Source: Bacteroidota bacterium (GTDB lineage: Bacteria; Bacteroidota; Ignavibacteria; UBA10030; UBA6906). Taken from it: DNA of 64,000 bases. Location of the stretch: assembly GCA_040756745.1 (NCBI GenBank), contig JBFLYO010000016.1, forward strand, positions 8,655-72,654, read 5' to 3'. Within the stretch, counting starts at the first letter, position 1; every line of letters begins with the position of its first letter. The translations under genes and the position numbers were made by a program. This document shows positions 6,513 to 36,583 of this stretch, piece after piece. The notes under the pieces were generated by a model. That model saw only the letters and a program-made list of their open reading frames with translations. It was not told the DNA's origin and made no database searches.

Positions 6513-6522
6513 GTTCTTCCGA

Positions 6523-9341: not shown

Positions 9342-9349
9342 CATTCGTA

Positions 9350-12698: not shown

Positions 12699-14314
12699 CA
12701 CCGTACCCGCTTCAGGATCTTCGCCATATTGCGGCCGAACATGTCTTTCTTCTCTTCCGTCGTGCAATGCGTGTACGCCATCCATCCGAACTGCGGGATC
12801 GGGTCGCGCATCGGTTGATCGGTCCCGAACAGCACCCGCTGCGCCCCGACATGCTTCACCATGTATTCGATGACACCGAGCGTCACGGCCGTCAGCGTGA
12901 TCTCCAGGGCGATATTCGGAAACTTGAGCGCCGCCTCGATTCCCTGGCGCGCGGTGGCATATGACGAGCCGCAGTGGGCGATGATGAACATGATCTCCGG
13001 GTAGCGGGGTGCGATCTCGTTGATCTCCTGCGTGAAATTCGGGGAGGGATGCATGAGCGCATATGCCCTCATCCTGTTCCCGTATTCGAACCACAGGGCC
13101 CAGGCCGGATCATTGTAGGGGATGCCGGTGCGCGGATTGTACGGCTTGATCCCTCCCATCCGGTAGGTCTGGTGCACTTTCTTCAGTTCGCGCGGCCAGT
13201 CCTTCACGTATTGCGGCTGCAATGTCGCATATCCCTCATAGTAGCGGGGAAAATCCTTCATCGCCTTCCTGACGATCTCATTGCCGTCCTCGTAATCAGC
13301 CCAGACGCCGATCCATGCACTGATACACTGCTTATCGATGCCCATCGTGCGCGCCCGTTCCACCATGCTCGCCGCGTCCGAGTGCGGCTGATGCATGAAC
13401 CCCGTCCCGACCGCCCCATCGTGCGAAATGTGCGCATGCGCGTCGATCACCAGCATGTCGCGCAGCGGCCTTCCCTGCTTCGCGAGCGCGAGGATGGGCT
13501 CCTCCTTCTTGTGCGGATAGGGAGGCGGCAGCTTTTCGATCCGGAGCAGACGGGCGAGGTTTCCCCCGGCGATCATTGCCTTGTCGTCGTCGTTCAATGT
13601 GCAGTAATCGACGAACGCTTTTGCCGCCCCCGGGGATTTTTCGAGCGCCCCGGTCCCGAAGAGGATCCTGTCGGCGCCGAACCAGCCGGCAAACACCTCC
13701 ATCGCGCGGTTCCCCTGGTGGCTGGAGAGCTCCAGATACAGGTTCCGATGCTTCGTCATGAGCGTGTGCAGAAACCGGGTGGAATCCCAGCGCGAACCCT
13801 GGAGGAGGACGCGCAGGTCGGGGTGCCGTGTGAGGACGGCATCCAGATCCGAGAGGAGTACCTGGTTCACCGGCTCCATCACTTCGACGCCGTACATAAA
13901 CCCGCCGTCCACCAGCAGCAGGATCTCTTCCCGCTCGAGCTCGGAGAGCAGATCGCCGCAGGTGTCCTCGTTGAAGAAATAATGATGCGTCTTTGGATAC
14001 ATCTTGACGGCGCGGATCTGATGCGAACGCATTTCCTCAACGACCTCCCGGGGGGGCGGCATTTCGCCTGTATGGTGGGGCATGACTGACCAGACACCCA
14101 ACAGCCGCGGGCTCTTCTTCAGCTCATGAACGAGCTTCCGGTTGCCGTACGCCGGGTCGTACTCCTTGCCAAGCCCGTGAGTGATGAGCGCGCCCTGGAT
14201 CCCGCACCAGGCCATCTCATCGAGCAACACCTCGGTTTCCCAGGGTGTCTCGACATCCTTCGGCCCCCGGCGGCCCACCATTGCGTTGCAGTCGATGTAC
14301 ACTCTCTCGGGCAT
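12695..14314 (-). CDS. tandem amidohydrolase-2 (metal-dependent TIM-barrel hydrolase) domain protein
   Basis: ORF 12695..14473 trimmed to Met54 (MPERVYIDCNAMVG), 4 nt after the upstream stop. The second half carries the VIDAHAHIS amidohydrolase_2 metal-binding motif. The first half has the analogous IDCNAMVG start, so it is an internally duplicated domain. Confidence 0.6.
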   Translation of the reverse strand: MPERVYIDCNAMVGRRGPKDVETPWETEVLLDEMAWCGIQGALITHGLGKEYDPAYGNRKLVHELKKSPRLLGVWSVMPHHTGEMPPPREVVEEMRSHQIRAVKMYPKTHHYFFNEDTCGDLLSELEREEILLLVDGGFMYGVEVMEPVNQVLLSDLDAVLTRHPDLRVLLQGSRWDSTRFLHTLMTKHRNLYLELSSHQGNRAMEVFAGWFGADRILFGTGALEKSPGAAKAFVDYCTLNDDDKAMIAGGNLARLLRIEKLPPPYPHKKEEPILALAKQGRPLRDMLVIDAHAHISHDGAVGTGFMHQPHSDAASMVERARTMGIDKQCISAWIGVWADYEDGNEIVRKAMKDFPRYYEGYATLQPQYVKDWPRELKKVHQTYRMGGIKPYNPRTGIPYNDPAWALWFEYGNRMRAYALMHPSPNFTQEINEIAPRYPEIMFIIAHCGSSYATARQGIEAALKFPNIALEITLTAVTLGVIEYMVKHVGAQRVLFGTDQPMRDPIPQFGWMAYTHCTTEEKKDMFGRNMAKILKRVRW

Positions 14315-14318
14315 GAGC

Positions 14319-15575
14319 TCACCACCAGAATGGTTTGACCGAGTCGCGCTCTTTCGGTTCAGCTTCGAGGGCACGCTGCAATGCCCTGCGGGATTTTTCG
14401 AGGGCTTCGTCGATGTCGGCCGGTTTGTGCGAATAGGAAATGAACCAGCGCGGGTTGGCAAATATGCCCTCACGATACAGCTCGCGGTGCCAGAGAAACT
14501 CCAGGCGTGCGTGGTAGTCGGGATCGCGGTGAACGAACTTCAGAAACGGGGCAGCAGGGAGTCCCGCGGCGTGTCCCTCGACGCCCAGATCCTTCACCAT
14601 CATGTCGAACCCCGCCATCAATCGCTCCCCCATGGCCCGCAGATGGTCGTGCACGTTCTCACGCATCATGATATCGAGCGTGGCCGCCGCGGCAGCAAGT
14701 GATAGGGTCTCCCCCGCATATGTTGTGGTCATCCTGAACGAGTTAAGCGTCTCCATCAACTGACGCTTCCCGCAATAGGCGGAGAGAGGGAACCCGTTGG
14801 CCAGTGCCTTGGCGTAGCTGACGAGATCGGCATCGACGCCGAAGAACTCCTGTGCCCCGCCCCGTGCAAGCCGGAAGCCCGTCAGCACTTCGTCAAGAAT
14901 AAGAACGATGCCCTCTTTCTGTGTGAGGGCGCGAAGAGTCCTGATGTACGTACCGCTCGTGTCCTCATTGAAATCGTACGGGACGGAAATGACGCAGGCA
15001 AGACGGTCGGCGTATTGCTTGATGAGACGTTCCGCGGCGTCGCAGTCTCCCCACGGAATGGATTTCACGTAGTCGCGCAGGACTTCGGGCACGCCGTTGC
15101 CGGGACTCCCCTCCGCCGAAAACCAGTCGGGATAGCCGTGGTACCCGCTGATCAGCATCATGTCACGCTTCGACCATGCGCGCGCGATTCTCACGTTGCA
15201 CATGTTTGCATCTTCGCCCGTCTTCATGAACCGGACCATCTCCGCGTTGGGGACGATCCGGTTGATCCGCTTTGCAACCTCCAGCTCGATCGGGCTTGCC
15301 ATGCTGAAGAGCACCCCCTTTGCAAGCTGCTCACGCACCGCGTTGTCCACTTCGTCGTAGCAGTAGCCCAGTGTCACCGGCCCGAGGGCCAGGCGGAAAT
15401 CGACGTACTCCTTCCCTTCCATGTCCCAGAGCCGGCACCCCTTCCCGCGGACGATGAACTTCGGCATCGTCTCCTGGAAGAACGGGTACGGACGTTTGGC
15501 GTTGGTCTGAGTTCCCCACGGGATCAGGCGGAGCGCTTCCTCAAAGTGGCGGTCGGACGGCTTCATGGTCTTCAA
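14319..15575 (-). CDS. class III (glutamate-1-semialdehyde aminomutase-like) PLP-dependent aminotransferase
   Basis: 418 aa. LILDEVLTGFRLARGGAQEFFGV and the surrounding fold are typical of the HemL/class-III aminotransferase family. ATG overlaps the upstream stop (ATGA). Confidence 0.8.
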   Translation of the reverse strand: MKTMKPSDRHFEEALRLIPWGTQTNAKRPYPFFQETMPKFIVRGKGCRLWDMEGKEYVDFRLALGPVTLGYCYDEVDNAVREQLAKGVLFSMASPIELEVAKRINRIVPNAEMVRFMKTGEDANMCNVRIARAWSKRDMMLISGYHGYPDWFSAEGSPGNGVPEVLRDYVKSIPWGDCDAAERLIKQYADRLACVISVPYDFNEDTSGTYIRTLRALTQKEGIVLILDEVLTGFRLARGGAQEFFGVDADLVSYAKALANGFPLSAYCGKRQLMETLNSFRMTTTYAGETLSLAAAAATLDIMMRENVHDHLRAMGERLMAGFDMMVKDLGVEGHAAGLPAAPFLKFVHRDPDYHARLEFLWHRELYREGIFANPRWFISYSHKPADIDEALEKSRRALQRALEAEPKERDSVKPFWW

Positions 15576-17590
15576 CCGATGACGATCTTCGGAACAGGTG
15601 TCCGGGGATCAATTGAGACGTCGATCTGCCGACCGTTATGGCTCCCCTTCACATTCCATGTCTCCTTCTCCCGCGTCACGGAAAGGGTTCCATGCTCGCC
15701 TCCCGTCTTCTGCGCGGTGCACACCGTGAGGATCATGTGCTCATTTGCCGGAGCGGATTCCGCTTCGGCATAGGGATGAATCCCCTTGTCGGGCGGCAGG
15801 TTATGCGAGGCCGTGCGAACCGTGACGGCCTGCGATCCCGAGATTGCCGCCTGGAGATTTGCAAGGGGGCGTTGAACCCCGAACGAAGCCCCCTCGGCGT
15901 TCACCGTTCCTTTGCCGTCTGAATTGTCAACCTGGAACCGGAGCTGGACCGGCAGCGGGTCTCCCTGTAGCTGCACACGGTCGAAGAGGAGCAGCACATC
16001 GGGCTTCAGGAACACGAGAGTTCTCTGAACCAGCGCGATGTTGTTGTTGACCAGACGATACGCGTCGGTGGCATCGCTCGTTACCGTCATCGCCTTCGTC
16101 GAATGCGAATAGTCCAGAATGCGCGCCTCGGCCCACGATGCGTTGGTCCCTTCGTGGCCGTTGTGATACTGGTGTCCTTTGCCATCGATGAGTACCGCCG
16201 TATGCGCCGACGTGAGCCGGAGGATCCAGTGTGGGTCGGTATACGCGTACGCAGCCCTGTACGGGTCGTGGAACAGCCGTTCGCCGTATGCCTTGAAGAT
16301 GATGCTGTTCCGATCGGCATGTTCGTGGTTCGCGGGTCCGCCGCTGCGCAGCGCGACGAGGCCGTCGGTGGGCTTCCAGCCGCTGCGGGAGACCACCCAG
16401 TCATCGGAGAATCGCACGTCCAACTGATCGGGGCCGGGCTTGCGCACCGGGAGGTCCGGGTCGAGCCAGATAATAGAGAAGTGGCTGGTGAGCTGACCGA
16501 CCTCCGTCGCGACGTACTGGGCGATGGAGTCTTTGAACCGCCTGGCGACCCATGCCGCAACTGCGACATCCCCCATGTTCCAGGCATCACCGAAGTTCAC
16601 GCAATCGTTTGGACGATCCGGCAGCGGCATGGCCATGCTGAGGCCGTACCGGACGGTGCCGGGATAATTGATGATGGTGCTCAGATCGGTCCTCTGCGTG
16701 CGCCGCACGGCTTCGACCAGCAGCGTGAGGTGCGACGCGGTATATCCCCAGTACCCCACCCCTTCGTCATAGGCACCATCCGGACCGAACATCGGCGCGA
16801 ACGCCTTCGCGCTCTGGACTGCCATATCGATCCATCGCTCGGCCTGGGGGTGCTTGCCACGGAGGAGACAGCCGGCCAGTCCGAGGCCGGCAATCGGAAT
16901 GACCTTGAGGTTGGTTGCATTCAGGATGAACGGCCACCGGCTCAGGTCGAAGCGGTACGGATAATCATCTTCCGGGTCAAACCCCCATCCGCGCACCCTG
17001 TCGGGATATTTCATGCCATACAGGGTGCGGTAGCAGGCCGGGGCTCCTTTCTCTGCGATCTGCTTCTCGATCTCGGCGGCGGTCTCTGTGTTCAGGAGCG
17101 GGCCGAGCCATTCGCGGGCGCATGACATGGCGATCGTCGCCTCGGGTGCGCGCTGAAGCCCGATCACCTCCTCTCCCCCCTCAAGGAAGTAGTCCCACTT
17201 GGGATATTCGAGAATCTTGTTGGCGGCTGCGAGCGCGACCTCTCCCTGCTTCCGGTCTCCCGTCACCGCAAAGACGAACGATGTGCGTTCCAGGATCTGG
17301 CGCACCTGAAGCATGTCCTTGACGTGATTATTGAACCGGACGCTCTCGCGCAGGAACTTTGCATCGGCATCGAGGTTGGCGTTGACCAGGGACTGCCAGT
17401 AGGGGACGACGCGAGGATGCCTGACCGCCCTGCGAATCCTCGGGAGGTCCGAGGCATCGAAGAGCAGGCCCTTGACGCGGGGCGAGGGGTCTTCAGTCGG
17501 GATCAGCGCAGCACGTGCCCCGGAGGGGATGAGTGAGACGCCCGCAGCGATCCCGGTGGCGCGGAGGAATTCTCGTCTGGAAGGGGGCAT
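15572..17590 (-). CDS. heparinase II/III-like polysaccharide lyase family protein (Tat-exported)
   Basis: 672 aa. Twin-arginine signal MPPSRREFLRATGIAAGVSLIPSGARA. Helix-rich N-terminal toroid-like half. C-terminal half has the H-x-H-x-D motif (ANHEHADRNSIIF) typical of the Hepar_II_III domain. Confidence 0.6.
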   Translation of the reverse strand: MPPSRREFLRATGIAAGVSLIPSGARAALIPTEDPSPRVKGLLFDASDLPRIRRAVRHPRVVPYWQSLVNANLDADAKFLRESVRFNNHVKDMLQVRQILERTSFVFAVTGDRKQGEVALAAANKILEYPKWDYFLEGGEEVIGLQRAPEATIAMSCAREWLGPLLNTETAAEIEKQIAEKGAPACYRTLYGMKYPDRVRGWGFDPEDDYPYRFDLSRWPFILNATNLKVIPIAGLGLAGCLLRGKHPQAERWIDMAVQSAKAFAPMFGPDGAYDEGVGYWGYTASHLTLLVEAVRRTQRTDLSTIINYPGTVRYGLSMAMPLPDRPNDCVNFGDAWNMGDVAVAAWVARRFKDSIAQYVATEVGQLTSHFSIIWLDPDLPVRKPGPDQLDVRFSDDWVVSRSGWKPTDGLVALRSGGPANHEHADRNSIIFKAYGERLFHDPYRAAYAYTDPHWILRLTSAHTAVLIDGKGHQYHNGHEGTNASWAEARILDYSHSTKAMTVTSDATDAYRLVNNNIALVQRTLVFLKPDVLLLFDRVQLQGDPLPVQLRFQVDNSDGKGTVNAEGASFGVQRPLANLQAAISGSQAVTVRTASHNLPPDKGIHPYAEAESAPANEHMILTVCTAQKTGGEHGTLSVTREKETWNVKGSHNGRQIDVSIDPRTPVPKIVIG

Positions 17591-17591: not shown

Positions 17592-18602
17592 TTAATTGAG
17601 AAGCGATTGAACGTCGATGACGGCCGCGCGTGCGACCGATTGCGTCATGGCTTCGATGACGGCCAGGGCACGGAGGCCTTCTTCTCCCCCCGTTTCGGGC
17701 GCGCGGCCGGTCAGCACACACTCTCCGAACTCGCGCATTTGCAGGATATAGCTCTCCGCCCCCTCCGTGCTGAAATCTTCGTCCGTCGTTCCGGTCGTAA
17801 CGCCTCCTTCGACCCGTTCGAGCCGGAGCGACGTTGGGCCACAGTGCAGAAGTCCCCGGGTGCCGTAGATCCTGAGGAAGTAGGCATCCGGCGACACATA
17901 GTACGAGGAGAGCACCACGGGGATGCCTGAGTCGAGCATCAACAGGGCGGCAGTCGCATCAAACACACCGCCGGGCATGGCAACATTCGAGGCAAGACAA
18001 CTCACGCGCCGGACCGGTGAAAGCAGATAGGCGATTGTGTCGACAAAGTGAATCCCCAGCTGCATCATGGGAAGCAACGGACATCGAGCCGGATCAGCCT
18101 TCCAGGTCGGGAGTCCCGGCAGGATGCCGGCAGGGCGGGAGACGTTCGCCTCCACACCAACATATGTGCCGAGCGTACCCTGATCAAGGAGTTCCTTTGC
18201 GCGGCGGAACACTTTGCGCCGCCGGGTGTTGTGGCCCACCATCAGGGTCATCCTGGCCTCATGCATCGCCGCGATCATCGCACGCCCTTCAGCTATGGTG
18301 TTGCCGATCGGCTTTTCCACGAACACATGCTTCCCCACGCGCGCCGCAGCGATGACTTCGTCGCAGTGAAGGTGATTCGGCGTCACCAGCGCCACAGCAT
18401 CAATCCCCGGGTCATTGACGAGATCATCGAACCCTGTGGCAATCCGAGCACCTGTGGCGTTTGCTGCGGCCGAACATGCCGCAGCGTCGGTATCGAAGAG
18501 TGAGACCAGGCTGAGGTTCCCCGCGGCCTGTATGGCATTGAGGATGGTCGCCCCGTGATTGGCGACCCCCACCTGGCCGATGCGGACGCGAGTTGCAGTC
18601 AT
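17592..18602 (-). CDS. Gfo/Idh/MocA family NAD(P)-dependent oxidoreductase
   Basis: 336 aa. N-terminal Rossmann IGQVGVANHG and the EKP motif (VFVEKPIG) are diagnostic of the family. Confidence 0.85.
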   Translation of the reverse strand: MTATRVRIGQVGVANHGATILNAIQAAGNLSLVSLFDTDAAACSAAANATGARIATGFDDLVNDPGIDAVALVTPNHLHCDEVIAAARVGKHVFVEKPIGNTIAEGRAMIAAMHEARMTLMVGHNTRRRKVFRRAKELLDQGTLGTYVGVEANVSRPAGILPGLPTWKADPARCPLLPMMQLGIHFVDTIAYLLSPVRRVSCLASNVAMPGGVFDATAALLMLDSGIPVVLSSYYVSPDAYFLRIYGTRGLLHCGPTSLRLERVEGGVTTGTTDEDFSTEGAESYILQMREFGECVLTGRAPETGGEEGLRALAVIEAMTQSVARAAVIDVQSLLN

Positions 18603-19669
18603 CGGAGGGCATTCCGCGTGCTGAATTCACTAATCTGCGCTTCGCCGTCGAGCACGCCAATCTGCACGTGGAAATCAGTCTGCTCCGCCGGCTCAATGTA
18701 CCGGAGCGTCCCCGCGGCGCGCTCATCGGCCCGTCCCTTCACGCCACAGTTTGCCGGCTCCACGCCGACGACGTATGTTCCCTCACCCATCATCTTCCAT
18801 TCAACGAGGCGCGGGAGCTCCTTCATACGGAACCGGACGGCGAGGGCCAGTTTCAGTACCGGATTACGAAGGAGCACTGTCCCGTACCCGTCCCTACCCG
18901 GGTCAAGATCGTGGTAAAACACCTGCTCACGGTACCCGGCGACGGGGCCGGAAAACCTCCGCGCATCCGCCAGTCCGCGACGCGCATCATCGTCGCGCGG
19001 GACAGTCCTCCCTGCCGGCAGCAGGAGGTCCGTACCTTCGTCAACAAGCGGCCAACCGGCGTTGATGTGATACAACATCATGAGCGGCGTTCGGGCGGTG
19101 CCTTCGTTGATCACTTCATCCCGAAGATCGATCCACGATTCTCCGAGCCGCGTCGTGATCGTTCGGCGGAGGAGGAGGTTTTCACCGAACGTCGTCGCCT
19201 CCCGCATGGATCCGTTCAGCGCCATAACGCAGTCGTCCCCTTCCCAGGTCTCCGACGAACCGACCGCGAACGCGGGGAGATGGGAGAGTCGCCCGTGAAG
19301 TCCCAGTTCCGTCCCTTCGTCGACGCACGGTGCCCCGAGGTATGTCATGCCGCAGCCGGTCATCAGTCCGCCGGGGAATGTCCGCAGCCACGCGCCCCCG
19401 CGTGGGTCAAAATACGATGGATGCACGTCCCCTGCCGCTGACCGCCATGCGAGCGGCACACCGCAGTACTCCGCGGCGCTTATATCCATCCCTCTGTCGA
19501 CCGACACCTGGAATCTCAATCCCGAGCCTGTCCGCACGTCGGCGATGCGCACTCCTGCCTCAGCGCCGTCGGCGAGCGTCATCATGCGGATCCCGGCAAT
19601 CTGTGAGACGCCGCCAATGCGACTCATCAGGTCCCGCCGGCTCATCGTTCTGCCAAACATCGTCGTCAT
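18599..19669 (-). CDS. DUF4432-like / galactose-mutarotase-like protein
   Basis: ORF 18599..19840 trimmed to Met58 (MTTMFGRTMSRRDL), giving an ATGA overlap with the upstream stop. 356 aa, beta-rich. The family assignment is from memory of DUF4432 proteins in sugar loci and is low confidence. Confidence 0.35.
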   Translation of the reverse strand: MTTMFGRTMSRRDLMSRIGGVSQIAGIRMMTLADGAEAGVRIADVRTGSGLRFQVSVDRGMDISAAEYCGVPLAWRSAAGDVHPSYFDPRGGAWLRTFPGGLMTGCGMTYLGAPCVDEGTELGLHGRLSHLPAFAVGSSETWEGDDCVMALNGSMREATTFGENLLLRRTITTRLGESWIDLRDEVINEGTARTPLMMLYHINAGWPLVDEGTDLLLPAGRTVPRDDDARRGLADARRFSGPVAGYREQVFYHDLDPGRDGYGTVLLRNPVLKLALAVRFRMKELPRLVEWKMMGEGTYVVGVEPANCGVKGRADERAAGTLRYIEPAEQTDFHVQIGVLDGEAQISEFSTRNALR

Positions 19670-20493
19670 GGCACGTACTCCCGTTCCATCAGGAGTCGGA
19701 GCGTGCGCACATTGCGCTCGGATTGTTCCACGAGTGGAAGGCAGTGTGTTTCGATCGTGATATGGGGAACAATGCGATCCTTGAGCAGCGCGCGCACCTG
19801 CCCCGCCCAGTCGATGATCCCCTCGCCGATCGGGACGCACTTGATCAGCGCCCCTTCCTTCGTGTCTTTTGCGTGCACGTTGACGATCACGGGCTTGATC
19901 GCTTCGTACCCTTCGGGATAGGGCCGTTCATCCGTGCCGGTCGCGTTGCATGGATCCCAGTTCGCCCCCAGCGCGGGGGAACCCACTTCTTCGATCAACC
20001 GCCGGGTATTCACTCCTGTGTCCGCGTGGAACCCCGGCTCGTTCTCGACGGCAATCTTCATCCCTGCCCGCTGTGCCGTGGCGGCGGCTCTCCGCAGGAG
20101 GTCAACCGCCTCCGAGCGTCGCTCGGGCGGTTCCCCTTCCTCCCGGCGGAAGCCGAACACGATGATCAACTTCGCCCCGCACGACGTTGCCAGGTTGACC
20201 GTGCGCGAAAGTGTGTCGGTGACCTCGTGTTCCAGTTCATCCCGCTTCCCCAGCGGGTGTTTGAAGATGCCCGGTGAGAGCGCGGTGATCGAGACCCCCT
20301 CGGCAGCGGTGGTGCGTACCACGGCTTCCCACTCTTCCGTGTCAACGTCGGGGACTCTTCCCGATGTCAGGCACCGGATTTCGTACCGGCGGATCCCCCA
20401 GTCCAGCCCGTGGCGAAGGGCCGTGCGAAAATCCTGATCGATCTCATCGCTCACGATCCCCAGCGGAAGCGGTCGAGGTCCTCCGCTGCTCAT
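19666..20493 (-). CDS. sugar phosphate isomerase/epimerase (xylose-isomerase-like TIM barrel) family protein
   Basis: 275 aa. Conserved metal-ligand pattern of the AP-endonuclease-2/xylose-isomerase-like TIM barrel family (IAVENEPG, HAKD, ETH). Confidence 0.7.
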   Translation of the reverse strand: MSSGGPRPLPLGIVSDEIDQDFRTALRHGLDWGIRRYEIRCLTSGRVPDVDTEEWEAVVRTTAAEGVSITALSPGIFKHPLGKRDELEHEVTDTLSRTVNLATSCGAKLIIVFGFRREEGEPPERRSEAVDLLRRAAATAQRAGMKIAVENEPGFHADTGVNTRRLIEEVGSPALGANWDPCNATGTDERPYPEGYEAIKPVIVNVHAKDTKEGALIKCVPIGEGIIDWAGQVRALLKDRIVPHITIETHCLPLVEQSERNVRTLRLLMEREYVP

Positions 20494-21269
20494 GATGCCG
20501 CTTCCAGGTAGCCGATGGCATGGGAAATTACCGCGGCTTCCTTCTTCAGGATATCGATCAGCCGGCTGATGACCTCGGCCTTCCGTTTCCGTTCGGACTG
20601 GATTGCAGTCATCAATGCGGCGGCCACCTTCCCCCGGTGGTCGCGGATCGGAACGGAGACCGCACAGAGGTCGGGCTTGTATTCGGCGTCGGCGATCGCG
20701 TAGCCTTGGCGGTTCACCTCCTTCAACCGCTTTTTCAGCCGTAAAACACTCGTGATGGTCTTCGGGGTAAACTTCTTCAGGCCGCTCCGCTCGATGATGC
20801 GATCGAGCTGCTCGGGGGGCACATCGGCGATCAGCACCTGCCCGGATGCCGTCGCGTGAACGGGCGAGCGCTGCCCGAGGCGGGCGACCATCGACCAGAT
20901 CTCCGGCGTGTCGGCACGGTCGATGATAATGACCTCTGAGCTGTCCAGGATGGCAAGGTAATAGCTCTCGCGCGTTTCATGGGCCATGCGCACCAGGTGC
21001 GGATGAACCACGGTTTTCAGATCGATCTTCTCCAGCGCCGCATTCCCCCAGTCGAGCAGCTTCATTCCCAGTCGGAAGATCTTCCTGTCGTGGTCCTGGA
21101 TGACGATCGCATGCTGTTCCAGTGCGGCGAGGATGCGGAACAGGGAGCTCTTGGGGATGGCAGTCTGCCGGGAGATCTCGGCCAGCGAAAAGCCGGTGTG
21201 CGAGGCGGCGAGAATCTCGATCACCTGCACCGTTCGGTGAATGGCGGGGACGGAGTATTCTCTGTGCAT
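20490..21269 (-). CDS. IclR-family transcriptional regulator
   Basis: 259 aa. N-terminal wHTH (SLAEISRQTAIPKSSLFRILAALE) and a C-terminal IclR effector-binding domain. Its stop overlaps the next gene's ATG (ATGA), so it appears to head the 21-kb operon. Confidence 0.85.
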   Translation of the reverse strand: MHREYSVPAIHRTVQVIEILAASHTGFSLAEISRQTAIPKSSLFRILAALEQHAIVIQDHDRKIFRLGMKLLDWGNAALEKIDLKTVVHPHLVRMAHETRESYYLAILDSSEVIIIDRADTPEIWSMVARLGQRSPVHATASGQVLIADVPPEQLDRIIERSGLKKFTPKTITSVLRLKKRLKEVNRQGYAIADAEYKPDLCAVSVPIRDHRGKVAAALMTAIQSERKRKAEVISRLIDILKKEAAVISHAIGYLEAAS

Positions 21270-21393: not shown

Positions 21394-22674
21394 TTACGGC
21401 TGTGCCCGCTCTCTGGCCTTCTGCATGCGATACCCGCTGGCCCGAAAGGCCGCCACCGGGTCTGCCGCCCCCCCCGCGCGCATCCGCACTGTCGCGAGGA
21501 TCGGTGCGACGTCGGTGGTGAACGCCGCCTTCAGCGTCCGAAGCGCCATGATGGCATCATTCGATTCCTGGTACGCGTCCAGCGCCTTCCGGTCGACAAG
21601 CAGGGCCTGCACATAGGCACGCTGGATCTCTTCCGCGCTGCTGATCAATGATTCCACCGGATCCGTCACGTTATGGCTCTGGTCGATCATGTACGCCGGC
21701 GCCGGGTTCTTGCCCAGCCCCCGCCATGCGCCGTTCACAAGCTCGTGGAAGATGAGAAAGAGCTGGAACGGCTTCATGCTGCCGGCATCCAGGTCGTCAT
21801 CCCCATACTTGCTGTCGTTGAAATGAAACCCACCCAGCTTCTCGAGCTGGAGCAGGCGGGCAACGATCATTTCAATGTTGACGTTCGGCGCATGGTGGCC
21901 GAGGTCCACGAGGCAAAGACAGCGCGGACCCACCCTCGCCGCCACGTAGTACGCCGTCCCCCAGTCGTTCAACACCGTCGAGTAGAACGCCGGCTCGTAC
22001 AGTTTGTACTCCACATAGAGCAACCAGTCGCCCGGCATCTCTGCGTATATCGTTTCAATGCTCGCGATGTACCGCTCCAGACTTTTGCGGAAATCGACCT
22101 GACCCGGAAAATTCCCGCCGTCGCCGACCCAGATCGAGAGCGCCCGCGAGCCCAGGGCTTTGCCGATCTCAACGCATTCCAGGTTGTGCGCAATGGCCTG
22201 CTCTCTGACGTCGCGCGAGGTGTGCGACAGACTGCCGAACTTGTAGCTCCGTTTCTGCCCTTTCTGGTCTTCGAATGTATTCGAGTTCATCGCGTCGAAA
22301 CCCAGGCCGAGCGCAGCGGCATGTTCTGCGAGCGCCCGCGGATCATCGGGCTTGTCCCAGGGAATATGGAGGGCGACCCGGGGGCTGATGCGGGTGAGCG
22401 TGTGGATCGCTGCGCAGTCGGCGATCTTCTCGTACACATCGCGCGGTTCCCCCGGACCGGGGAACCTGCCGAACCGGGTCCCCCCGGTTCCGACGGCCCA
22501 TGACGGCAGGGCCACGGCAAGTTGCTGAGCGTCGGCGGTCACCCGATCGATGTCGATGCCGCGACGCTGGAGGCGCTCTCCAAGCTGCTGATAGTCCCGG
22601 TCCAGCTCAGCGCTCATTCCCTTGTTGTGCGAGGCAACGAACGCTTCGTCAATCCTGAATCCCGTCGTTTTCAT
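21394..22674 (-). CDS. rhaI: L-rhamnose isomerase (Pseudomonas stutzeri RhaI-type, xylose-isomerase-like fold)
   Basis: ORF 21394..22944 trimmed to Met91 (MKTTGFRIDE), giving an ATGA overlap with the upstream kinase stop. Blocks VALPSWAVGTGGTRF, LHIPWDK, GLGFDAMNSNTF, YKFGSLSHT, VDLGHHAPNVNIEMIVARL, GGFHFNDSKYGDDDLDAG and MIDQSHNVTDPVESL match the RhaI-type L-rhamnose isomerase family. Confidence 0.75.
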   Translation of the reverse strand: MKTTGFRIDEAFVASHNKGMSAELDRDYQQLGERLQRRGIDIDRVTADAQQLAVALPSWAVGTGGTRFGRFPGPGEPRDVYEKIADCAAIHTLTRISPRVALHIPWDKPDDPRALAEHAAALGLGFDAMNSNTFEDQKGQKRSYKFGSLSHTSRDVREQAIAHNLECVEIGKALGSRALSIWVGDGGNFPGQVDFRKSLERYIASIETIYAEMPGDWLLYVEYKLYEPAFYSTVLNDWGTAYYVAARVGPRCLCLVDLGHHAPNVNIEMIVARLLQLEKLGGFHFNDSKYGDDDLDAGSMKPFQLFLIFHELVNGAWRGLGKNPAPAYMIDQSHNVTDPVESLISSAEEIQRAYVQALLVDRKALDAYQESNDAIMALRTLKAAFTTDVAPILATVRMRAGGAADPVAAFRASGYRMQKARERAQP

Positions 22675-24155
22675 GGCTCGGTGTGCGCAAGCTGGTGAAG
22701 GATGTTCTGCATTGCCGGGAAGAGTTCCCGGTACCGAAGGAAGAGTCGATCGTATCGCCGGACGCGGGAGGGACGCGGACGGAAGGTGCGCGCCGTGCGC
22801 ACCGTGGCCCGCACCGCCTCTTCGGCGGAGCGGTAGATCCCTGTCCCGACTCCTGCCATAATCGCCGCCCCCAGGCAAGCGGCCTCCGTCACTTCCGGCA
22901 CGACCACGGGACGGTTCATGATGTCCGCCTTGATCTGCATCCAACGTGGTGATTTGGCGCCTCCTCCGATTGCGCGGAATCGGCGAATGCGTATCCCGCC
23001 CGCGGCGAGCAACTCGACGTTCAGCCGCATCTCCATGGTGACCCCTTCCAGGAGTGCTGCGGTAATCTCGCCGCGGGCCGTGGAAAGCTGAAGCCCTGCA
23101 ATCACGCCGCCGGACCGGGTATCAAAGTACGGCGTTCCGGTCATCGTGAAATGCGGCAGTACCAGAAGACGCGACGGAACATCGCCGGAGGCGCTGACCA
23201 GCCCGTCATAGCTTCCGCCGAATGTGTCGCGGTACCACCGCAACAGCGAACCGCCCGTGAAGTTGAATGCGAGCGAAACGTACTTCCCCGGAACGATGTG
23301 GGGATAGACACAGAGGTTGTTCCGCATGAGCCCGGCTGAGGTCAGAGGTCTGGTGAATGTCGGCACTATGCACTCCACCGTCCCCGTGGCGTACATCGCC
23401 TCGTCATGCCCCGTAACCCCTGCACCAAGCGCACCGCACGGCTGATCATGGCCCCCGGCGACCACGCGAACACCCCTTGACAGCCCCAGCGCCGCCGCCG
23501 CGCGCGAATCAAGCTCGCCGATCACTGTGCCTGAGGGAACCGGCCTTGCCAGCAGTGCCTGGTCGAGCCCGGCCGTGTGCAGTATTCGGTCCGACCACAT
23601 CAGGCGGGAAACGTCGAACCCCATGGTGCGTGCAGCGAGCGAGAAGTCGATGCAGGGTTCCACACCGGCACGGAGGGCAAAGAAGTCCTGAAAGCAGAGA
23701 TAGCGTGCAGTCCGGCGGGTCAGGCCGGGCTTGAACTTCCGGAGCCACTGGATTTTGGGGAGCGTCGCCATCGCGCTCAGCGGGATGCCGGTAATCGCGA
23801 AGATCCGCCTGCGGCCCATCCGCCGATCCCACCACGACACCAGCGGCTCGGCCCGTCCATCGAACGTCACGATGCTGTTGTGCAATACGCGGCCAGTCCG
23901 GTCCACCGGCATGAAGGCTTCTCCCTGCGCGGAAACTGCGAGCGCTGTTACAGGATCACGCCGCGTTGCCTCAGCGACTGAGCGAACCGCACGGACTGTT
24001 TTCTTCCAGACCTCCTCGGGATCCAATTCGATCCAGCCGGCCCGGGGAAATAGTAAAGGGTATTCCGTCGATGACGACGCGATCTGCTTCCCTTCGCGAT
24101 CAAAAGCGACCGCCTTGCATCCAGTGGTCCCGATGTCGATGCCGAGAAGACTCAC
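22671..24155 (-). CDS. FGGY-family carbohydrate kinase (probable rhamnulokinase)
   Basis: 494 aa. N-terminal LGIDIGTTGCKAV and the FGGY C-terminal domain (GGGAKSPRWMQIKADI). Lies between rhaI and the rhamnulose-1-P aldolase fusion. Confidence 0.7.
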   Translation of the reverse strand: MSLLGIDIGTTGCKAVAFDREGKQIASSSTEYPLLFPRAGWIELDPEEVWKKTVRAVRSVAEATRRDPVTALAVSAQGEAFMPVDRTGRVLHNSIVTFDGRAEPLVSWWDRRMGRRRIFAITGIPLSAMATLPKIQWLRKFKPGLTRRTARYLCFQDFFALRAGVEPCIDFSLAARTMGFDVSRLMWSDRILHTAGLDQALLARPVPSGTVIGELDSRAAAALGLSRGVRVVAGGHDQPCGALGAGVTGHDEAMYATGTVECIVPTFTRPLTSAGLMRNNLCVYPHIVPGKYVSLAFNFTGGSLLRWYRDTFGGSYDGLVSASGDVPSRLLVLPHFTMTGTPYFDTRSGGVIAGLQLSTARGEITAALLEGVTMEMRLNVELLAAGGIRIRRFRAIGGGAKSPRWMQIKADIMNRPVVVPEVTEAACLGAAIMAGVGTGIYRSAEEAVRATVRTARTFRPRPSRVRRYDRLFLRYRELFPAMQNILHQLAHTEP

Positions 24156-24167
24156 GCATGCACCTCC

Positions 24168-26228
24168 TCAACGCACGAACGCCGCAGAGACTCCGCCGTC
24201 CACGGTGAGCACCCCGCCCGTCGTCTTCAGTGATCGGTCGGAGGCAAAGAAGAGAGTGGCCTCAGCGATGTCTTCGGGGAGGATGCTCTCGCCGAGCAGC
24301 GTCCGTTTGCGATAGAACTCCTCCAGTTGATCGGGGGAGATCCCGTAAGCCGCCGCACGTTCTTTCCGCCATGACCCGCTCCAGATCGACGACCCCTGCA
24401 GGACAGCGTCGGGACAGACCGTGTTCACGCGTATCTTCCTGCTCCCCCCCTCTTCGGCGAGGCACCGGGCGAGATGCAGCTCCGCTGCTTTGGCGGCGCT
24501 GTACGCGGTCGCATTCTTCCCGCTGGCAAGTGCATTCTTGGAGGCGATGAAGATAATCGATCCGCCGATCCCCTGCCGCGCCATGACGCGGAACCCTTCG
24601 CGGGCGACCAGGAAGTACCCCTTGCCGAGGATGTCCATCTGCTTCTGCCACTGCTCGACGGTCGTCTCTTCGATCGGGTTGGCGGACGAAATGCCTGCGT
24701 TGGACACGACGATATCCAGGCCGCCGAATGTCGCGACAGCCGCGTCGACCGCTGCCTCCACGTCCGACTCCTTTGCCACATCCATCCCGCACGCAATGGC
24801 GCGTCCCGGGCCTTGCGCGGCCGTGATTTCGGCGGCAACGGCTTTCGCCCCCGCCTCATTGATGTCCCCGATCGCGACGTGACACCCCTCGGCTGCGAAC
24901 CGTTTGGCGATCGCACGTCCGATGCCGCTCGCTCCCCCGGTCACGAACGCCGCACGGCGCGCGAGCGATTTCTCGGGAGGCGCGAGCGAGAGTTTGTAAA
25001 TCTCGAGGGGCCAGTATTCCACACTGAAGGCCTCCGGCGGCGTCATCGAGACATACGTGCTCACGGTGGATGCGTTCCGGATCACGGAGATCGTCCGGTG
25101 GTAGATGTCGCGCGTGATGTCCGCCGTCCCCTTATCTTTGCCCGTCGTGACCATCCCCATGCCGGGGATCAGGATGACGCGCGGAGAGGGATCGTACATC
25201 CTGTCCCCTCTGGACCGGTGCTTCGAAAAGTATTTCTCATAGACGCGGACATATTGCTCCAGCGCATCTTCAAACCGCTCGCCGAAGGAGGCGGCGGCTG
25301 ACGGTTTGAACCCCGCAATGACGAGGGGATAGAGTTTTGTGCTCACGAGGTGATCGGGACACGCCGCACCCTTTCCTGCAAGCGCAGCGAGTTTCCTGCT
25401 GTTGACGAACTCCAGCACCTCTGGCGAATCGTCAAAGGTAAGTATCATGCGGGTGCGCTTGCTTACAGCGCCGCGGATGATCGGGAGAGAGCGCAGCGCG
25501 AACTCCTTCCGGACTCGTTCGGGCGCCGCATGCACCTTCGCGCCGCCAAAGACCTTCTTTCCCGCCAGACGGCGAGCGAAAAAGTCCTGCGCCTCGGCGA
25601 TGACGGTGATCGTGTTGTCATAAGACTCTTTTGCCGTCGCCCCCCACGTGATCAATCCATGCTTCCCGAGCAAGACTGCACGGAGCCGGTCATTGCCGTT
25701 GATCAACGCGCCACACTGTTTCGCCAGGGCGAACCCCGGCCGGAGCCATGGCAGCCACGCCGCCCTGTCGCCGCAAATTTCCTTCATGAGTCGGGGACCA
25801 TCCTTTGAAGTACAGAGGGCGATGATCGCATCCGGATGCATGTGATCGATATGCGTGTGGTCGATGAACGCGTGGATGAGCGCGTCGATCGAGGGACGCC
25901 GCGCGTTCAGGTCCACCAGGCAGTGCGCCAGATACTCCACCATCTCCTCGTCGCTCATGGAGGCACGGCTCCGGAGCTCCAGGACGGGGTCCAGGGCGAC
26001 GCCGGGGAAGCCGGCCCGGGTGCTTGTGCGCAGGTCACCCCCGCTCCCTTTCACCCGCATCACGCGGATCGGCTCCCCCCGGAAGTCCTTCTCCATGATC
26101 TTTGCCGAGGTGTTGCCTCCCGCCCAGTTGGTCACCGAGGGGTCTTCCCCCAGGATGTTGGAACGGTAGACCAGCAGGTCGAATTCGTTCAGGCCTTTCG
26201 CCTTCTTCTCATCCCAGTAATTCTTCAT
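24168..26228 (-). CDS. bifunctional rhamnulose-1-phosphate aldolase / short-chain dehydrogenase
   Basis: 686 aa. N-terminal class II aldolase domain (LLVYRSNILGEDPSVTNWAGGNTSAKI) fused to a C-terminal SDR domain (TGGASGIGRAIA ... YSAAKAA), as in the YuxG/RhaEW-type fusion. Confidence 0.8.
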   Translation of the reverse strand: MKNYWDEKKAKGLNEFDLLVYRSNILGEDPSVTNWAGGNTSAKIMEKDFRGEPIRVMRVKGSGGDLRTSTRAGFPGVALDPVLELRSRASMSDEEMVEYLAHCLVDLNARRPSIDALIHAFIDHTHIDHMHPDAIIALCTSKDGPRLMKEICGDRAAWLPWLRPGFALAKQCGALINGNDRLRAVLLGKHGLITWGATAKESYDNTITVIAEAQDFFARRLAGKKVFGGAKVHAAPERVRKEFALRSLPIIRGAVSKRTRMILTFDDSPEVLEFVNSRKLAALAGKGAACPDHLVSTKLYPLVIAGFKPSAAASFGERFEDALEQYVRVYEKYFSKHRSRGDRMYDPSPRVILIPGMGMVTTGKDKGTADITRDIYHRTISVIRNASTVSTYVSMTPPEAFSVEYWPLEIYKLSLAPPEKSLARRAAFVTGGASGIGRAIAKRFAAEGCHVAIGDINEAGAKAVAAEITAAQGPGRAIACGMDVAKESDVEAAVDAAVATFGGLDIVVSNAGISSANPIEETTVEQWQKQMDILGKGYFLVAREGFRVMARQGIGGSIIFIASKNALASGKNATAYSAAKAAELHLARCLAEEGGSRKIRVNTVCPDAVLQGSSIWSGSWRKERAAAYGISPDQLEEFYRKRTLLGESILPEDIAEATLFFASDRSLKTTGGVLTVDGGVSAAFVR

Positions 26229-30117: not shown

Positions 30118-31400
30118 CTTTGTGTTCGCGTTGTGGCAGTTTTCACCCCCTCGAGGACACGATCGACTTCGTCCGGCATATTGTAAATGTGCGTCGAGAC
30201 GCGCAGCGCCGCCATCCCCCCCTCACCGACAGGTCGCGTGCGCAAGTTGTAGGTGGTCAGGTGATTCTGGAGCTCCAGGTGAGGGAGCGCCTCATGCGAA
30301 AACGTGATCATCGCGCTTCGCATGTCATCGGCTTCGGGCGAATGCACCCTGACGCCGGGGATTTCCCGCAGCCCGCGATAGAGCCGCGTGGAAAGCATCC
30401 TGTCGCGCTCCCACACCTGCCGGATGCCGATACGCCGGATAAACCTGACCGCCTCCCACAGTCCAACCCGCAGTGGGACGTTCACGGTCCCGTACTCGTA
30501 CCTCTGGGCCGAAGGGTGGAAGGCGAGCGTCCCCTTGAGGAAATCAAAGCCACCATCGGAATACGCGCCCACCGAGGTCGCCCTCACGGTGTCGAGCATT
30601 GCGCGGCGCACATACAGTACCCCCGTTTCCTTGGGACCCATCAACCACTTGTGTCCGCTGGTGGCGTATGCGTCACATCCGATCTCATGCAGGCTGAACG
30701 GGAACATGCCTGCCGTCTGGGCGCCATCAACGAAGAACCAGATGTTCCTGGCCCTCGCCATCGTTGCGATGTCGCGTACCGGGAGAATGAGCCCTGTTGT
30801 CGTCACGGCATGGGGGACGGAAATCAGCCGGGTCCTCTTAGAGAACAATGCGGCGATCCGGTCGAGATTCTCCTGCTGCGACTGGATCGATGGTTCAAAC
30901 AGTCTCAGCACCACCCCGGTCCGTCTGGCAAGAGCAAGCCATGGGAGTGCATTGCCCACATGTTCATGGGTGGTCAGGATGACCTCGTCGCCCGATCTGA
31001 GAGGCAGCCCGTTGGCGACGATGTTGATTCCTTCAGTGGTGTTCCGGGTGAACGCGACCTCATCGTCGCCGCAGCCGAGGAGGGACGCGATGTCTGTCTT
31101 GATCTCCTTCCAGAGCTGCTCGTCGCGGCCGGTTTCGGAGATTCTCTCGAGCTCCCGCATCTTTGTCGTCACCGCGTCGATCACGGCATAGGGAGACGCA
31201 CCGAGTCCGCCGGTATTCAGATAGGCCCGGTCACGTTCCAGAGGGAACTGTTCGCGGAGGAACTCCCAGAACGACTCATCGGCCGGGTCGCCGGACGGCC
31301 AGGGGGGAGGAGACGCGGCGGCAGTGCCGGCCGCGAAGGGGGGCATGAGCATTGCGCCTGCAGCTGCGGCACCGATCCGCACGAATGTTTTCCTGTTCAT
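30114..31400 (-). CDS. class V PLP-dependent aminotransferase-fold enzyme with N-terminal export signal
   Basis: 428 aa. Signal-like N-terminus MNRKTFVRIGAAAAGAMLMPPFAAGTAAA. Class V aminotransferase / cysteine-desulfurase fold with the PLP lysine motif SGHKWLMGP. Confidence 0.7.
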   Translation of the reverse strand: MNRKTFVRIGAAAAGAMLMPPFAAGTAAASPPPWPSGDPADESFWEFLREQFPLERDRAYLNTGGLGASPYAVIDAVTTKMRELERISETGRDEQLWKEIKTDIASLLGCGDDEVAFTRNTTEGINIVANGLPLRSGDEVILTTHEHVGNALPWLALARRTGVVLRLFEPSIQSQQENLDRIAALFSKRTRLISVPHAVTTTGLILPVRDIATMARARNIWFFVDGAQTAGMFPFSLHEIGCDAYATSGHKWLMGPKETGVLYVRRAMLDTVRATSVGAYSDGGFDFLKGTLAFHPSAQRYEYGTVNVPLRVGLWEAVRFIRRIGIRQVWERDRMLSTRLYRGLREIPGVRVHSPEADDMRSAMITFSHEALPHLELQNHLTTYNLRTRPVGEGGMAALRVSTHIYNMPDEVDRVLEGVKTATTRTQR

Positions 31401-31517
31401 AGCTCGATCTCCATTGCTACCGTTGATCCTCTCCGCGGATAAGGAATCAGCAGCGTCAGGGCCGGTGTCTTGATAAAGTCGCGGCGGTTCATGAGTTTGC
31501 TATCGATTCGGAATTAA

Positions 31518-31536
31518 TGGTTCGCCGTTAATCGGA
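31518..31536. repeat. 19-nt motif GGTTCGCCGTTAATCGGAT (copy 1 of a direct repeat)
   Basis: An identical motif with one substitution occurs at 33892..33910. This copy also has an imperfect inverted partner ATCCGATTACTTGTGAACCG at ~31576..31595. Confidence 0.5.
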
Positions 31537-31620
31537 TAGCCGGGTTAACAGATAACTGTTGACTGTTAAGATCGATCCGATTACTTGTGAACCGCGATAG
31601 ATGAATACAAGATGGCAACA

Positions 31621-36579: not shown

Positions 36580-36583
36580 GGCT

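Follow-up and report, generated by a model that had tools for sequence, protein, structure and literature searches.

A Gfo/Idh/MocA-type oxidoreductase (GFO) encoded beside a sugar-isomerase-like TIM barrel of the AP_endonuc_2 family is a hallmark not only of oxidative glycoside cleavage but also of inositol catabolism and of the epimerisation of 3-keto-glycosides by YcjQRS, and the pairing alone is thus not diagnostic. The known oxidative systems draw on the same two protein families and share the same four-step logic (PMC10628242; PMC7676230; bioRxiv 10.1101/2024.03.25.586180), and distant variants of other architectures are expected to exist (bioRxiv 10.1101/2024.03.25.586180). Cleavage or remodelling of sugars via keto intermediates has been recognised only recently as an alternative to classical glycosidases, with a handful of systems characterised. 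Here we analysed a stretch of 64,000 nucleotides (the window; positions 8,655 to 72,654 of contig JBFLYO010000016.1, GenBank assembly GCA_040756745.1; G+C content about 61%) from a Bacteroidota bacterium of the Ignavibacteria, which contains two such pairs: GFO1 and TIM1, split by a DUF4432 gene (cassette 1), and TIM2 and GFO2, split by a cupin gene (cassette 2). Both pairs and their intervening genes had been pointed out in a first-pass annotation, and all of these assignments were confirmed by Pfam. A chemistry in which NAD(P)-dependent oxidation of a sugar hydroxyl is followed by metal-assisted enolisation in the TIM barrel is well supported at the level of sequence, and the cassettes probably remodel or split unusual sugars via a keto intermediate. 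Sequence does not tell which way the enolate goes: it may lose an aglycone, an ether or water, or take up a proton again to become an epimer or isomer. We tentatively favour two independent, conserved, cytoplasmic cassettes of an 'oxidise then enolise' type within a rhamnose/mannose glycan locus, with epimerisation or isomerisation in cassette 1 and beta-elimination in cassette 2.

Domain assignments were made by Pfam and NCBIfam scans over 38 open reading frames (ORFs) of the window, covering all neighbours of both cassettes, with ORFs of fewer than 200 aa away from the cassettes left out of the Pfam scan; a domain model above its gathering score was taken as Pfam membership and a score above the equivalog cut-off as NCBIfam membership. 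TIM1 and TIM2 were modelled with AlphaFold, folds were compared by Foldseek and families by hhalign.

Cassette 1 is encoded on the minus strand and begins with an IclR-family regulator (20490..21269; Pfam), followed by TIM1 (19666..20493), which matches AP_endonuc_2 with 108 bits and is modelled with a pLDDT of 95.6; none of its 910 homologs is named with a specific function. The next gene, DUF4432 (18599..19669; Pfam 346 bits), had been regarded as small, but read from its true start, the ATG at 19669, it encodes 356 aa, which is also the length of its homologs. The protein is mutarotase-like (aldose 1-epimerase fold), with 93 bits to PDB 3ty1, a 'hypothetical aldose 1-epimerase', and no NCBIfam match. 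GFO1 (17592..18602) is a Gfo/Idh/MocA NAD(P) sugar oxidoreductase with an N-terminal and C-terminal domains (Pfam 78/68/50 bits in all, 78 for the N-terminal domain). Start and stop codons overlap as ATGA between IclR, TIM1, DUF4432 and GFO1, and a heparinase II/III-like gene (15572..17590, minus strand; Hepar_II_III_C, 42.6 bits) starts one base past the GFO1 stop, so that a single operon comprises all five genes. As a facultative neighbour, the heparinase II/III-like protein carries a twin-arginine (TAT) signal at its N-terminus (MPPSRREFLRATG). It is followed on the same strand by a class-III (GSA-aminomutase/GntE-like) aminotransferase (14319..15566; Pfam; NCBIfam 293 bits against a cut-off of 486) and an Amidohydro_2 protein of about 539 aa (12695..14314; Pfam).

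To describe the conservation of cassette 1 we searched 80 genome loci encoding TIM1 relatives (48-69% identity) with all proteins of the window and counted same-strand neighbours at the 40 loci where the sequence continues for 9 kb or more downstream of TIM1. Nearly all loci belong to metagenome-assembled genomes (MAGs) of Ignavibacteriota, Bacteroidota, Kryptoniota and KSB1; on plasmids, TIM1 has essentially no relatives. The most constant partners of TIM1 are the adjacent IclR regulator and the class-III aminotransferase (32/40 loci each), followed by the amidohydrolase (28/40). GFO1 and a TAT-signal six-hairpin protein homologous to the one at 31621-33852 of the window were each found at 27 loci, the heparinase II/III-like gene at 22, DUF4432 at 21 and the rhamnose isomerase gene RhaI at 8; a gene for an Old-Yellow-Enzyme-like (OYE-like) FMN oxidoreductase, absent from the window, is present at 16. 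All 16 loci with the OYE-like gene also carry GFO1 (Fisher p=3e-4), as do all eight loci with RhaI (p=0.04), and GFO1 is associated with DUF4432 (odds ratio 6.7, p=0.017); the amidohydrolase in turn occurs only together with the aminotransferase (28/28, p=6e-6). These p-values are descriptive only, as shared ancestry among MAGs is ignored. The OYE-like partner hints at an alpha,beta-unsaturated carbonyl (enone) intermediate. At these 16 loci (e.g. L022, L024, L035, L037, L043 and L048; in L024 at 13004-14464) its gene sits between TIM1 and GFO1. GFO1 showed no co-variation with the aminotransferase at the 40 loci, nor with the heparinase-like gene (odds ratio 0.67); a functional link of GFO1 to this 'lyase' found no support, the heparinase-like protein also being exported and GFO1 cytoplasmic. 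An impression from the first three loci that GFO1 is not conserved beside TIM1 was overturned by the full survey, and the pairing of GFO1 and TIM1 is more than chance.

Cassette 2 lies on the plus strand. TIM2 (47684..48499) is a divergent AP_endonuc_2 member (38.4 bits against a Pfam cut-off of 31.1) modelled as a TIM barrel with a pLDDT of 92.4; it is followed by a single-domain cupin of 149 aa (48651..49100; Cupin_2, 58 bits) and by GFO2 (49172..50341; Pfam 90/54/44 bits), a Gfo/Idh/MocA oxidoreductase orthologous to PDB 3oqb. The order TIM2-cupin-GFO2 holds at all ten loci whose TIM2 ortholog is 57% or more identical (L004, L086, L088, L091/L092, counted as one because of identical matches, L094, L095, L097, L119, L166 and L167), with the qualification that L088 ends before the position of GFO2. 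Directly downstream of these TIM2 orthologs the cupin is 74-79% and GFO2 72-82% identical. No TIM2 homolog below 56% identity has cupin and GFO2 downstream; the neighbours of these more distant homologs are unrelated. A gene for a creatininase-family metal hydrolase (50393..51157, plus strand; Pfam 198 bits) is a facultative fourth member, found with the closer TIM2 relatives only and absent from half of the cassette-2 orthologous loci. The usual surroundings comprise a TonB-dependent receptor set, GH78, GH47, PhyH, an MFS sugar transporter, an AGE-like epimerase, a BadF-type kinase and a cupin-type glucose-6-phosphate isomerase. As for cassette 1, the pairing of TIM2 and GFO2 is more than chance.

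The first-pass annotation had treated the pairing as one arrangement occurring twice. Two pairs are indeed present, but they are unrelated, and neither is a duplicate of the other: over 229 residues GFO1 is 24% identical to GFO2, and the TIM1 and TIM2 families are aligned by hhalign with a probability of only 7%. Outside this lineage, six of ten sampled proteobacterial plasmid loci (L171, L173, L177, L180, L182 and L183, from Variovorax, two Sinorhizobium, Pseudosulfitobacter, Pararhizobium and Rhizobium) encode a GFO, a TIM barrel, a DUF4432 protein about 35% identical to that of cassette 1 and an SDR, followed by a CoA-transferase and an enoyl-CoA hydratase or a lactonase; the arrangement in Pararhizobium is DUF4432-SDR-lactonase. 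The GFO and TIM barrel of this triad are not orthologs of GFO1 and TIM1, though the barrel is remotely related to TIM1 (hhalign probability 62%; DPxN and HAKD motifs in both), and the SDR with lactonase or CoA-transferase behind the triad points to free-sugar processing. In Croceibacterium (L178) a GH78 rhamnosidase fills the GFO-TIM slot in front of DUF4432, SDR and CoA-transferase. The triad clusters also encode sugar ABC transporters and sometimes a FAH-family protein, and are apparently uncharacterised. Orthologs of GFO2 (63-70% identity) occur in Bacteroidota and Alphaproteobacteria and, by organism tally, also in Arthrobacter and Haloferax. Those of Chondrinema, Paroceanicella and Chelatococcus (3/3 loci) adjoin an AP_endonuc_2 TIM barrel; these barrels belong to other subfamilies and are not TIM2 orthologs. 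The operons of GFO2 orthologs include enolase-superfamily and DHDPS-family genes in Alphaproteobacteria, and GH88 adjoins in Chondrinema. PDB searches with the Chondrinema barrel and the triad barrel of Sinorhizobium matched only uncharacterised 'sugar isomerase' structures. The association of GFO and TIM barrel is thus robust at the family level, and for cassette 1 it extends to DUF4432.

The two TIM barrels differ at the position of the base that known eliminases require. In the Agrobacterium O-glycoside enzyme AtOGE and in the C-glycoside eliminases (CGEs), Mn2+ is coordinated by an Asp on strand beta6, a His on beta7, a Glu on beta8 and a beta5 residue that is His132 in AtOGE and Glu in the CGEs. 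The essential base is a His two residues past the beta5 ligand (H134 in AtOGE, H143 in PuCGE); the AtOGE residues are H132/H134, D163, H189 and E233 (PMC10628242). Placing the invariant residues of each family on the AlphaFold strands yields a proposed metal site of E125, D153, H183 and E233 at the ends of beta5 to beta8 of TIM2, with H127 at beta5+2 (E125-T-H127). This E-x-H arrangement has the same layout as in AtOGE and the CGEs; it also has the same form as the 'LETH' of AsbF, a dehydratase, so that the motif is not specific to glycoside cleavage. None of seven other AP_endonuc_2 sequences that were read has E-x-H at this position. For TIM1 the proposed site is E150, D180, H207 and E248, and beta5+2 is occupied by E152 (E150-N-E152), a Glu in place of the eliminase His. 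In a profile alignment with UlaE, E150 of TIM1 coincides with the metal-binding Glu, VHAKDTK with VHVKDTK, 'LAME' is matched and the HxKDT motif is common to both. Judged by these models, the site of TIM1 resembles that of an epimerase, lacking the His base, and the site of TIM2 that of an eliminase or dehydratase.

Comparisons at the level of whole sequences and folds place the cassette proteins at a distance from all characterised enzymes. GFO1 scores 114.9 bits with IolG (TIGR04380, cut-off 355), 107 bits with Gfo6 D-xylose 1-dehydrogenase (cut-off 350), 85.0 bits with levoglucosan dehydrogenase (LGDH; LevoglcsnDh NF052479, cut-off 650) and 50.1 and 46.2 bits with BT_2158 and BT_2159 (cut-offs 750 and 650). 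Its best PDB matches are 3db2, aldose-aldose oxidoreductase, 1,5-anhydrofructose reductase and IolG (80-103 bits); LGDH (70 bits), DgpA (60-63 bits) and 8tdf (35 bits) rank lower. GFO2 has LevoglcsnDh as its top NCBIfam match (82.7 bits against 650), followed by IolG (64.7 bits against 355), and no match to the BT_2158 and BT_2159 models. In PDB it matches 3oqb, a structural-genomics 'oxidoreductase', with 553 bits; LGDH (6a3f, 84.7 bits) comes next and is the nearest characterised relative, and further matches include scyllo-inositol dehydrogenase. TIM1 is matched by the UlaE-type models PRK13209, PRK13210 and TIGR00542 (50.7, 46.6 and 34.8 bits against 317, 200 and 272). UlaE is also first among its Foldseek matches (TM 0.81), ahead of Art22, AsbF and many ketose 3-epimerases, and no glycoside eliminase is found among its top 50 fold matches. 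TIM2 has no NCBIfam match and fold matches of TM 0.70 at most, with Art22 first, then SCO6571, AsbF and UlaE; the C-deglycosidases CGD, CarB (CarB2) and DgpBC follow at ranks 16-46 (TM 0.56-0.65). The closest relatives of both barrels, by fold or sequence, are thus not proven eliminases. The comparison with 3-keto-glycoside lyases and CarB that the first-pass annotation had called for gave no sequence-level match of TIM1 or TIM2 to proven eliminases and a CarB fold match for TIM2 only, and extending the NCBIfam search to E-values of up to 10 added no weak matches to lyase families. Literature searches on DUF4432, 3OQB, 3TY1 and Art22 returned nothing relevant.

All four enzymes, GFO1, GFO2, TIM1 and TIM2, lack a signal peptide at their N-termini. 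Twin-arginine signals were found on three other minus-strand products, the heparinase II/III-like protein, which would thus be periplasmic, a class-V pyridoxal-phosphate (PLP) enzyme (30114-31400; SufS/PvdN-like) and the 743-aa six-hairpin glycosidase-like protein (31621-33852); this makes depolymerisation in the periplasm probable. Homologs of the three are again found in related loci, and a periplasmic PLP enzyme is unusual for a glycan locus. Judged from these signals, both cassettes would be cytoplasmic and act on imported small molecules, which would enter through the SSF transporters of this locus or the MFS transporters of related ones.

In both cassettes, the Gfo/Idh/MocA enzyme would, by family membership, convert a secondary alcohol group on a sugar or small glycoside taken up by the cell into a ketone, and the divalent metal of the TIM barrel would stabilise the enolate formed after removal of an alpha-proton. 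A third, sugar-binding protein, the mutarotase-like DUF4432 or the cupin, might handle the product, and the ketone would be reduced again by the oxidoreductase or by means of NADH, the directions of the redox steps being presumed. In cassette 1, the likeliest role of TIM1 is to epimerise or isomerise an unusual sugar at a position beside the carbonyl, in the manner of E. coli YcjQRS, the sugar being probably 6-deoxy and possibly amino-sugar-derived; the product may be anomerised by DUF4432 and consumed by the adjacent RhaI-RhaB-RhaEW enzymes, and the aminotransferase and amidohydrolase may act on the same substrate family. Epimerisation or isomerisation is favoured here because of the UlaE-like site of TIM1, the resemblance of GFO1 to free-sugar enzymes and the ties of GFO1 to DUF4432 and RhaI. 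For cassette 2, the E-x-H site of TIM2 and the proximity of GFO2 to LGDH make beta-elimination from a 3-keto intermediate, of the LGDH/Lgd or AtOGE type, the likeliest reaction. The group lost would be an aglycone, water or an intramolecular ether. Hydration or tautomerisation may then be aided by the cupin, and the hexose left after re-reduction would be a substrate for the kinase and isomerase whose genes are neighbours in related loci.

Several observations weigh against this favoured assignment. The cassette proteins reach the NCBIfam cut-off of no characterised family (BT2158/2159, levoglucosan dehydrogenase, IolG, UlaE, IolN), and all similarities to characterised enzymes lie at about 12-25% identity. 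GFO1 is absent from a third of the TIM1 loci (13/40), and the most constant partners of TIM1, aminotransferase and amidohydrolase, are only loosely explained by the model. The OYE-like reductase found with GFO1 hints at elimination or dehydration rather than epimerisation in cassette 1. The distinction between E-x-H and E-x-E is drawn from few characterised enzymes and is no validated discriminator; E152 of TIM1 could itself act as a base. The co-occurrence statistics, finally, take no account of the relatedness of the MAGs.

The first-pass annotation had proposed that both cassettes carry out oxidative deglycosylation. Spelled out in full, the GFO would oxidise C3 of a rhamnoside, mannoside or glucoside, the TIM barrel would form a 2-hydroxy-3-keto-glycal by eliminating the aglycone, a hydratase or accessory role would fall to DUF4432 or the cupin, and the GFO would re-reduce the 3-keto sugar. 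The published systems use the same families and steps, both cassettes sit in glycan-utilisation loci, and the constant company of the OYE-like ene-reductase and GFO1 (16/16) fits an enone product; the GH78 rhamnosidase of Croceibacterium, standing where six other Proteobacteria have GFO and TIM barrel, has the look of a non-orthologous glycosidase replacement, although this swap is a single observation. Together with the OYE link it keeps elimination in play for cassette 1. The E-x-H site of TIM2 and the LGDH-like GFO2 agree with this proposal, and beta-elimination following 3-oxidation has stayed plausible for cassette 2. It is less likely for cassette 1, whose TIM1 is nearest to UlaE and ketose 3-epimerases by fold and has Glu152 for the catalytic His, and whose GFO1 scores enzymes acting on C1 or C2 of aldoses, and anhydrofructose enzymes, above DgpA, LGDH and 8tdf. 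By the annotation's own yardstick, namely proximity of the barrels to sugar-phosphate epimerases and of the oxidoreductases to inositol or glucose-fructose enzymes, cassette 1 nominally falls on the opposing side, at low similarity (UlaE for TIM1; IolG, ahead of DgpA and LGDH, for GFO1). In addition, the BT_2158, BT_2159 and LevoglcsnDh models give 46-85 bits against cut-offs of 650-750, and each cassette has a single TIM barrel and neither DUF1080 nor a DgpB/CarC-like subunit. The role of accessory subunits offered for DUF4432 and the cupin found no support: both are unrelated to DUF1080, DgpB and CarC, and DUF4432 has a mutarotase fold and is followed by SDR and lactonase in Proteobacteria. 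The proposal is supported in part: what stands of its non-hydrolytic logic is the oxidation followed by enolisation, which fits both cassettes, in cytoplasmic proteins that reach the cut-off of no family. For both cassettes together we thus regard oxidative deglycosylation as rather unlikely. Still more doubtful is its boldest form, in which GFO, UlaE-like TIM barrel and DUF4432, often with the OYE-type ene-reductase, would constitute an unrecognised cytoplasmic deglycosylation system spread from Ignavibacteriota to Alphaproteobacteria and replacing GH78 rhamnosidase, DUF4432 or the ene-reductase processing the enone (glycal) in the role of DUF1080 or a second barrel, and TIM2-cupin-GFO2 being a second, independent solution.

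Rather unlikely for the locus as a whole, too, is ring catabolism, in which the GFO would oxidise a free aldose, a cyclitol or a uronate-derived compound, the TIM barrel would be a dehydratase or isomerase of the IolE/AsbF/IolO type, and the Amidohydro_2 protein as lactonase and the creatininase-like protein as IolN-type diketone hydrolase would open the ring and feed a PfkB kinase and an aldolase. For cassette 2, beta-elimination has its main competitor in such a route, with a cyclitol as substrate or with ring opening, of the IolG/IolE/IolN type. Several sugar lactonases have the Amidohydro_2 fold, and a member of this family is encoded at 28 of the 40 TIM1 loci, where its presence goes with that of the aminotransferase, however, rather than with that of GFO1. 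The matches of GFO1 to aldose-aldose oxidoreductase, Gfo6 and IolG, those of GFO2 to scyllo-inositol dehydrogenase, the DUF4432-SDR-lactonase order in Pararhizobium, the enolase-superfamily, DHDPS-family and GH88 neighbours of GFO2 orthologs, and the occurrence of AsbF and IolE among the fold matches of both TIM barrels all speak for this route, as does a PfkB kinase with a weak IolC/KdgK-like match in the same strand run as cassette 1. A weak match of the creatininase-like protein to IolN (NF041098) fits as well, but at 35.5 bits it is far below the cut-off of 245, as is the 115-bit match of GFO1 to IolG against 355; the creatininase-like gene, moreover, is absent from half of the cassette-2 orthologous loci, and no IolD, IolB, IolC or aldolase set is found near either cassette.

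That the GFO and TIM-barrel genes are mere chance neighbours, both families being very large and abundant in sugar loci, GFO1 missing at 13 of 40 TIM1 loci and the distant TIM2 homologs standing among unrelated genes, is very improbable in view of the start/stop overlaps in cassette 1, strand and order kept across dozens of MAGs, the invariant TIM2-cupin-GFO2 order and the recurrence of GFO, TIM barrel and DUF4432 in Proteobacteria with non-orthologous members.

Both cassettes lie in long runs of genes for glycan use. The minus-strand run contains, in order, a GH38 mannosidase, the PfkB kinase, two copies of a unit of an unassigned protein of about 610 aa and a BNR propeller, the Amidohydro_2 and aminotransferase genes, the cassette-1 operon and genes for RhaI, RhaB and RhaEW, followed by two SSF transporters, the class-V PLP and six-hairpin proteins, two PhyH dioxygenases, a MetE-like protein, a PorV-like protein and a TonB-dependent receptor. 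The L-rhamnose genes (21394..26228) immediately precede the IclR-TIM1 operon and share its strand: RhaI (21394-22674; TIGR02629, 667 bits) and RhaEW, a bifunctional rhamnulose-1-phosphate aldolase/dehydrogenase (24168-26228; TIGR02632, 881 bits), both score above their cut-offs, and the FGGY kinase RhaB (22671-24155) lies between them, its stop overlapped by the RhaI start at 22674. By Pfam and NCBIfam assignment, the phosphorylated L-rhamnose pathway is thus complete beside cassette 1. The conserved genes upstream of it (26279..33852, minus strand), two SSF transporters and the TAT-signal class-V PLP and six-hairpin glycosidase-like proteins, belong to the same module; they were identified by Pfam, NCBIfam and signal peptides. 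The divergent plus-strand run comprises TIM2, the cupin, GFO2, the creatininase-like gene, a rhamnosidase-like six-hairpin protein, GH47 and an S9 peptidase.

Three further features of the window deserve mention. The two-gene unit at 4689-10414 (minus strand) is a tandem duplicate encoding a secreted protein of about 610 aa and a BNR/sortilin-type beta-propeller of about 350 aa; the secreted proteins have no Pfam domain, are 44% identical and share a GDTENHW motif, and the propeller copies are 41% identical. Two PhyH-family dioxygenases, the MetE-like (Meth_synt_2) protein and a URO-D-like protein are encoded at 35836-37372 and 39533-40567 (minus strand) and at 58188-59174 (plus strand); PhyH, MtaB and URO-D genes are also found near TIM2 homologs on other contigs (L005, L167 and one JGI contig), and the set may serve the removal of O-methyl groups from sugars or cyclitols. 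Divergent from cassette 2, at 40707-47581 (minus strand), lies a trio of a TonB-dependent receptor (CarboxypepD_reg type), a secreted protein of about 840 aa with no Pfam domain and a PorV/UPF0164-like protein. It has the same position in all close relatives (L004, L166, L167) and is perhaps an uptake unit of the SusC/D kind in which no SusD can be recognised.

The cassettes are conserved in dozens of soil and sediment genomes of Ignavibacteriota and Bacteroidota, their subfamilies are not named by curated models, and DUF4432, the cupin and the OYE-like reductase are partners to which no role has been assigned. Assigning a chemistry would give a function to DUF4432 and to the PDB orphan 3oqb, add to the sequence rules by which TIM barrels of the epimerase and eliminase types are told apart, and help to annotate the glycan-utilisation loci of uncultured bacteria. 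Should both prove to be plain epimerases or isomerases, this would be useful for annotation and no surprise.

Among the described systems, the GlycDH/AtOGE/AtHYD/Gfo operon of Agrobacterium tumefaciens and the C-glycoside eliminases DgpBC and CarBC (PMC10628242; PMC8563793) likewise combine a Gfo oxidoreductase with a Mn-dependent AP_endonuc_2 barrel. TIM2 resembles them in the layout of the beta5 to beta8 ligands and the His at beta5+2, and CGD, CarB and DgpBC are among its fold matches; in contrast, TIM1 has a Glu instead of the catalytic His, no eliminase appears among its first 50 fold matches, and neither cassette shows detectable sequence similarity to these enzymes. Unlike the DgpBC and CarBC heteromers, the cassettes encode no small beta-subunit; the adjacent DUF4432 and Cupin_2 proteins are unrelated to the partner subunits, and there is no room for a further ORF. 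The levoglucosan pathway LgdA/LgdB1/LgdB2/LgdC (PMC7676230) is cytoplasmic and redox-neutral, proceeding by oxidation, elimination, hydration and reduction, and its LGDH is nearest to GFO2, albeit at 82.7 bits where the family model requires 650. In the AtOGE and Lgd operons an eliminase is joined by a hydratase, whereas each cassette has a single TIM barrel; the partners of GFO2 are one divergent barrel and a cupin, compared with several barrels in Lgd. The Bacteroides/Alistipes AL1-AL4 system (BT2156-BT2160; bioRxiv 10.1101/2024.03.25.586180) shares the phylum-level setting, the location in glycan-utilisation loci and, as the partner of its GFO, a lyase that bears the annotation 'sugar phosphate isomerase'. 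However, it is periplasmic (Sec, lipoprotein and TAT signals) and needs a DUF1080 protein, whereas the cassette enzymes carry no signals and DUF1080 had no match among the 38 Pfam-scanned ORFs, which include all cassette neighbours and, elsewhere, exclude ORFs of fewer than 200 aa.

Inositol catabolism (IolG with IolE/IolI; IolG/IolN/IolO in Thermotoga) also combines a GFO with an AP_endonuc_2 barrel and has a counterpart to the creatininase-family hydrolase of cassette 2, but the IolG and IolN scores are below their cut-offs and the remaining iol genes are absent. The L-xylulose-5-phosphate 3-epimerase UlaE/SgbU and the ketose 3-epimerases are the best profile and fold match of TIM1, with the same Glu-Asp-His-Glu spacing and VH(A/V)KDTK motif; unlike UlaE, TIM1 stands in a context without ascorbate or pentose-phosphate genes, the two are only about 20% identical, and the NCBIfam score of TIM1 is 50.7 bits against a cut-off of 317. 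E. coli YcjQ, YcjR and YcjS, as summarised from Mabanglo et al. 2020 in PMC11543891, consist of a GFO dehydrogenase and a TIM-barrel epimerase that act on a 3-keto-glycoside without cleaving it. They are the best analogy for an epimerase-like TIM1 beside GFO1; the E. coli cluster is not known to contain DUF4432, an aminotransferase or an amidohydrolase. Taken together, the two cassettes are uncharacterised subfamilies and new combinations of partners within a known kind of system, and nothing about them demands a new mechanism.

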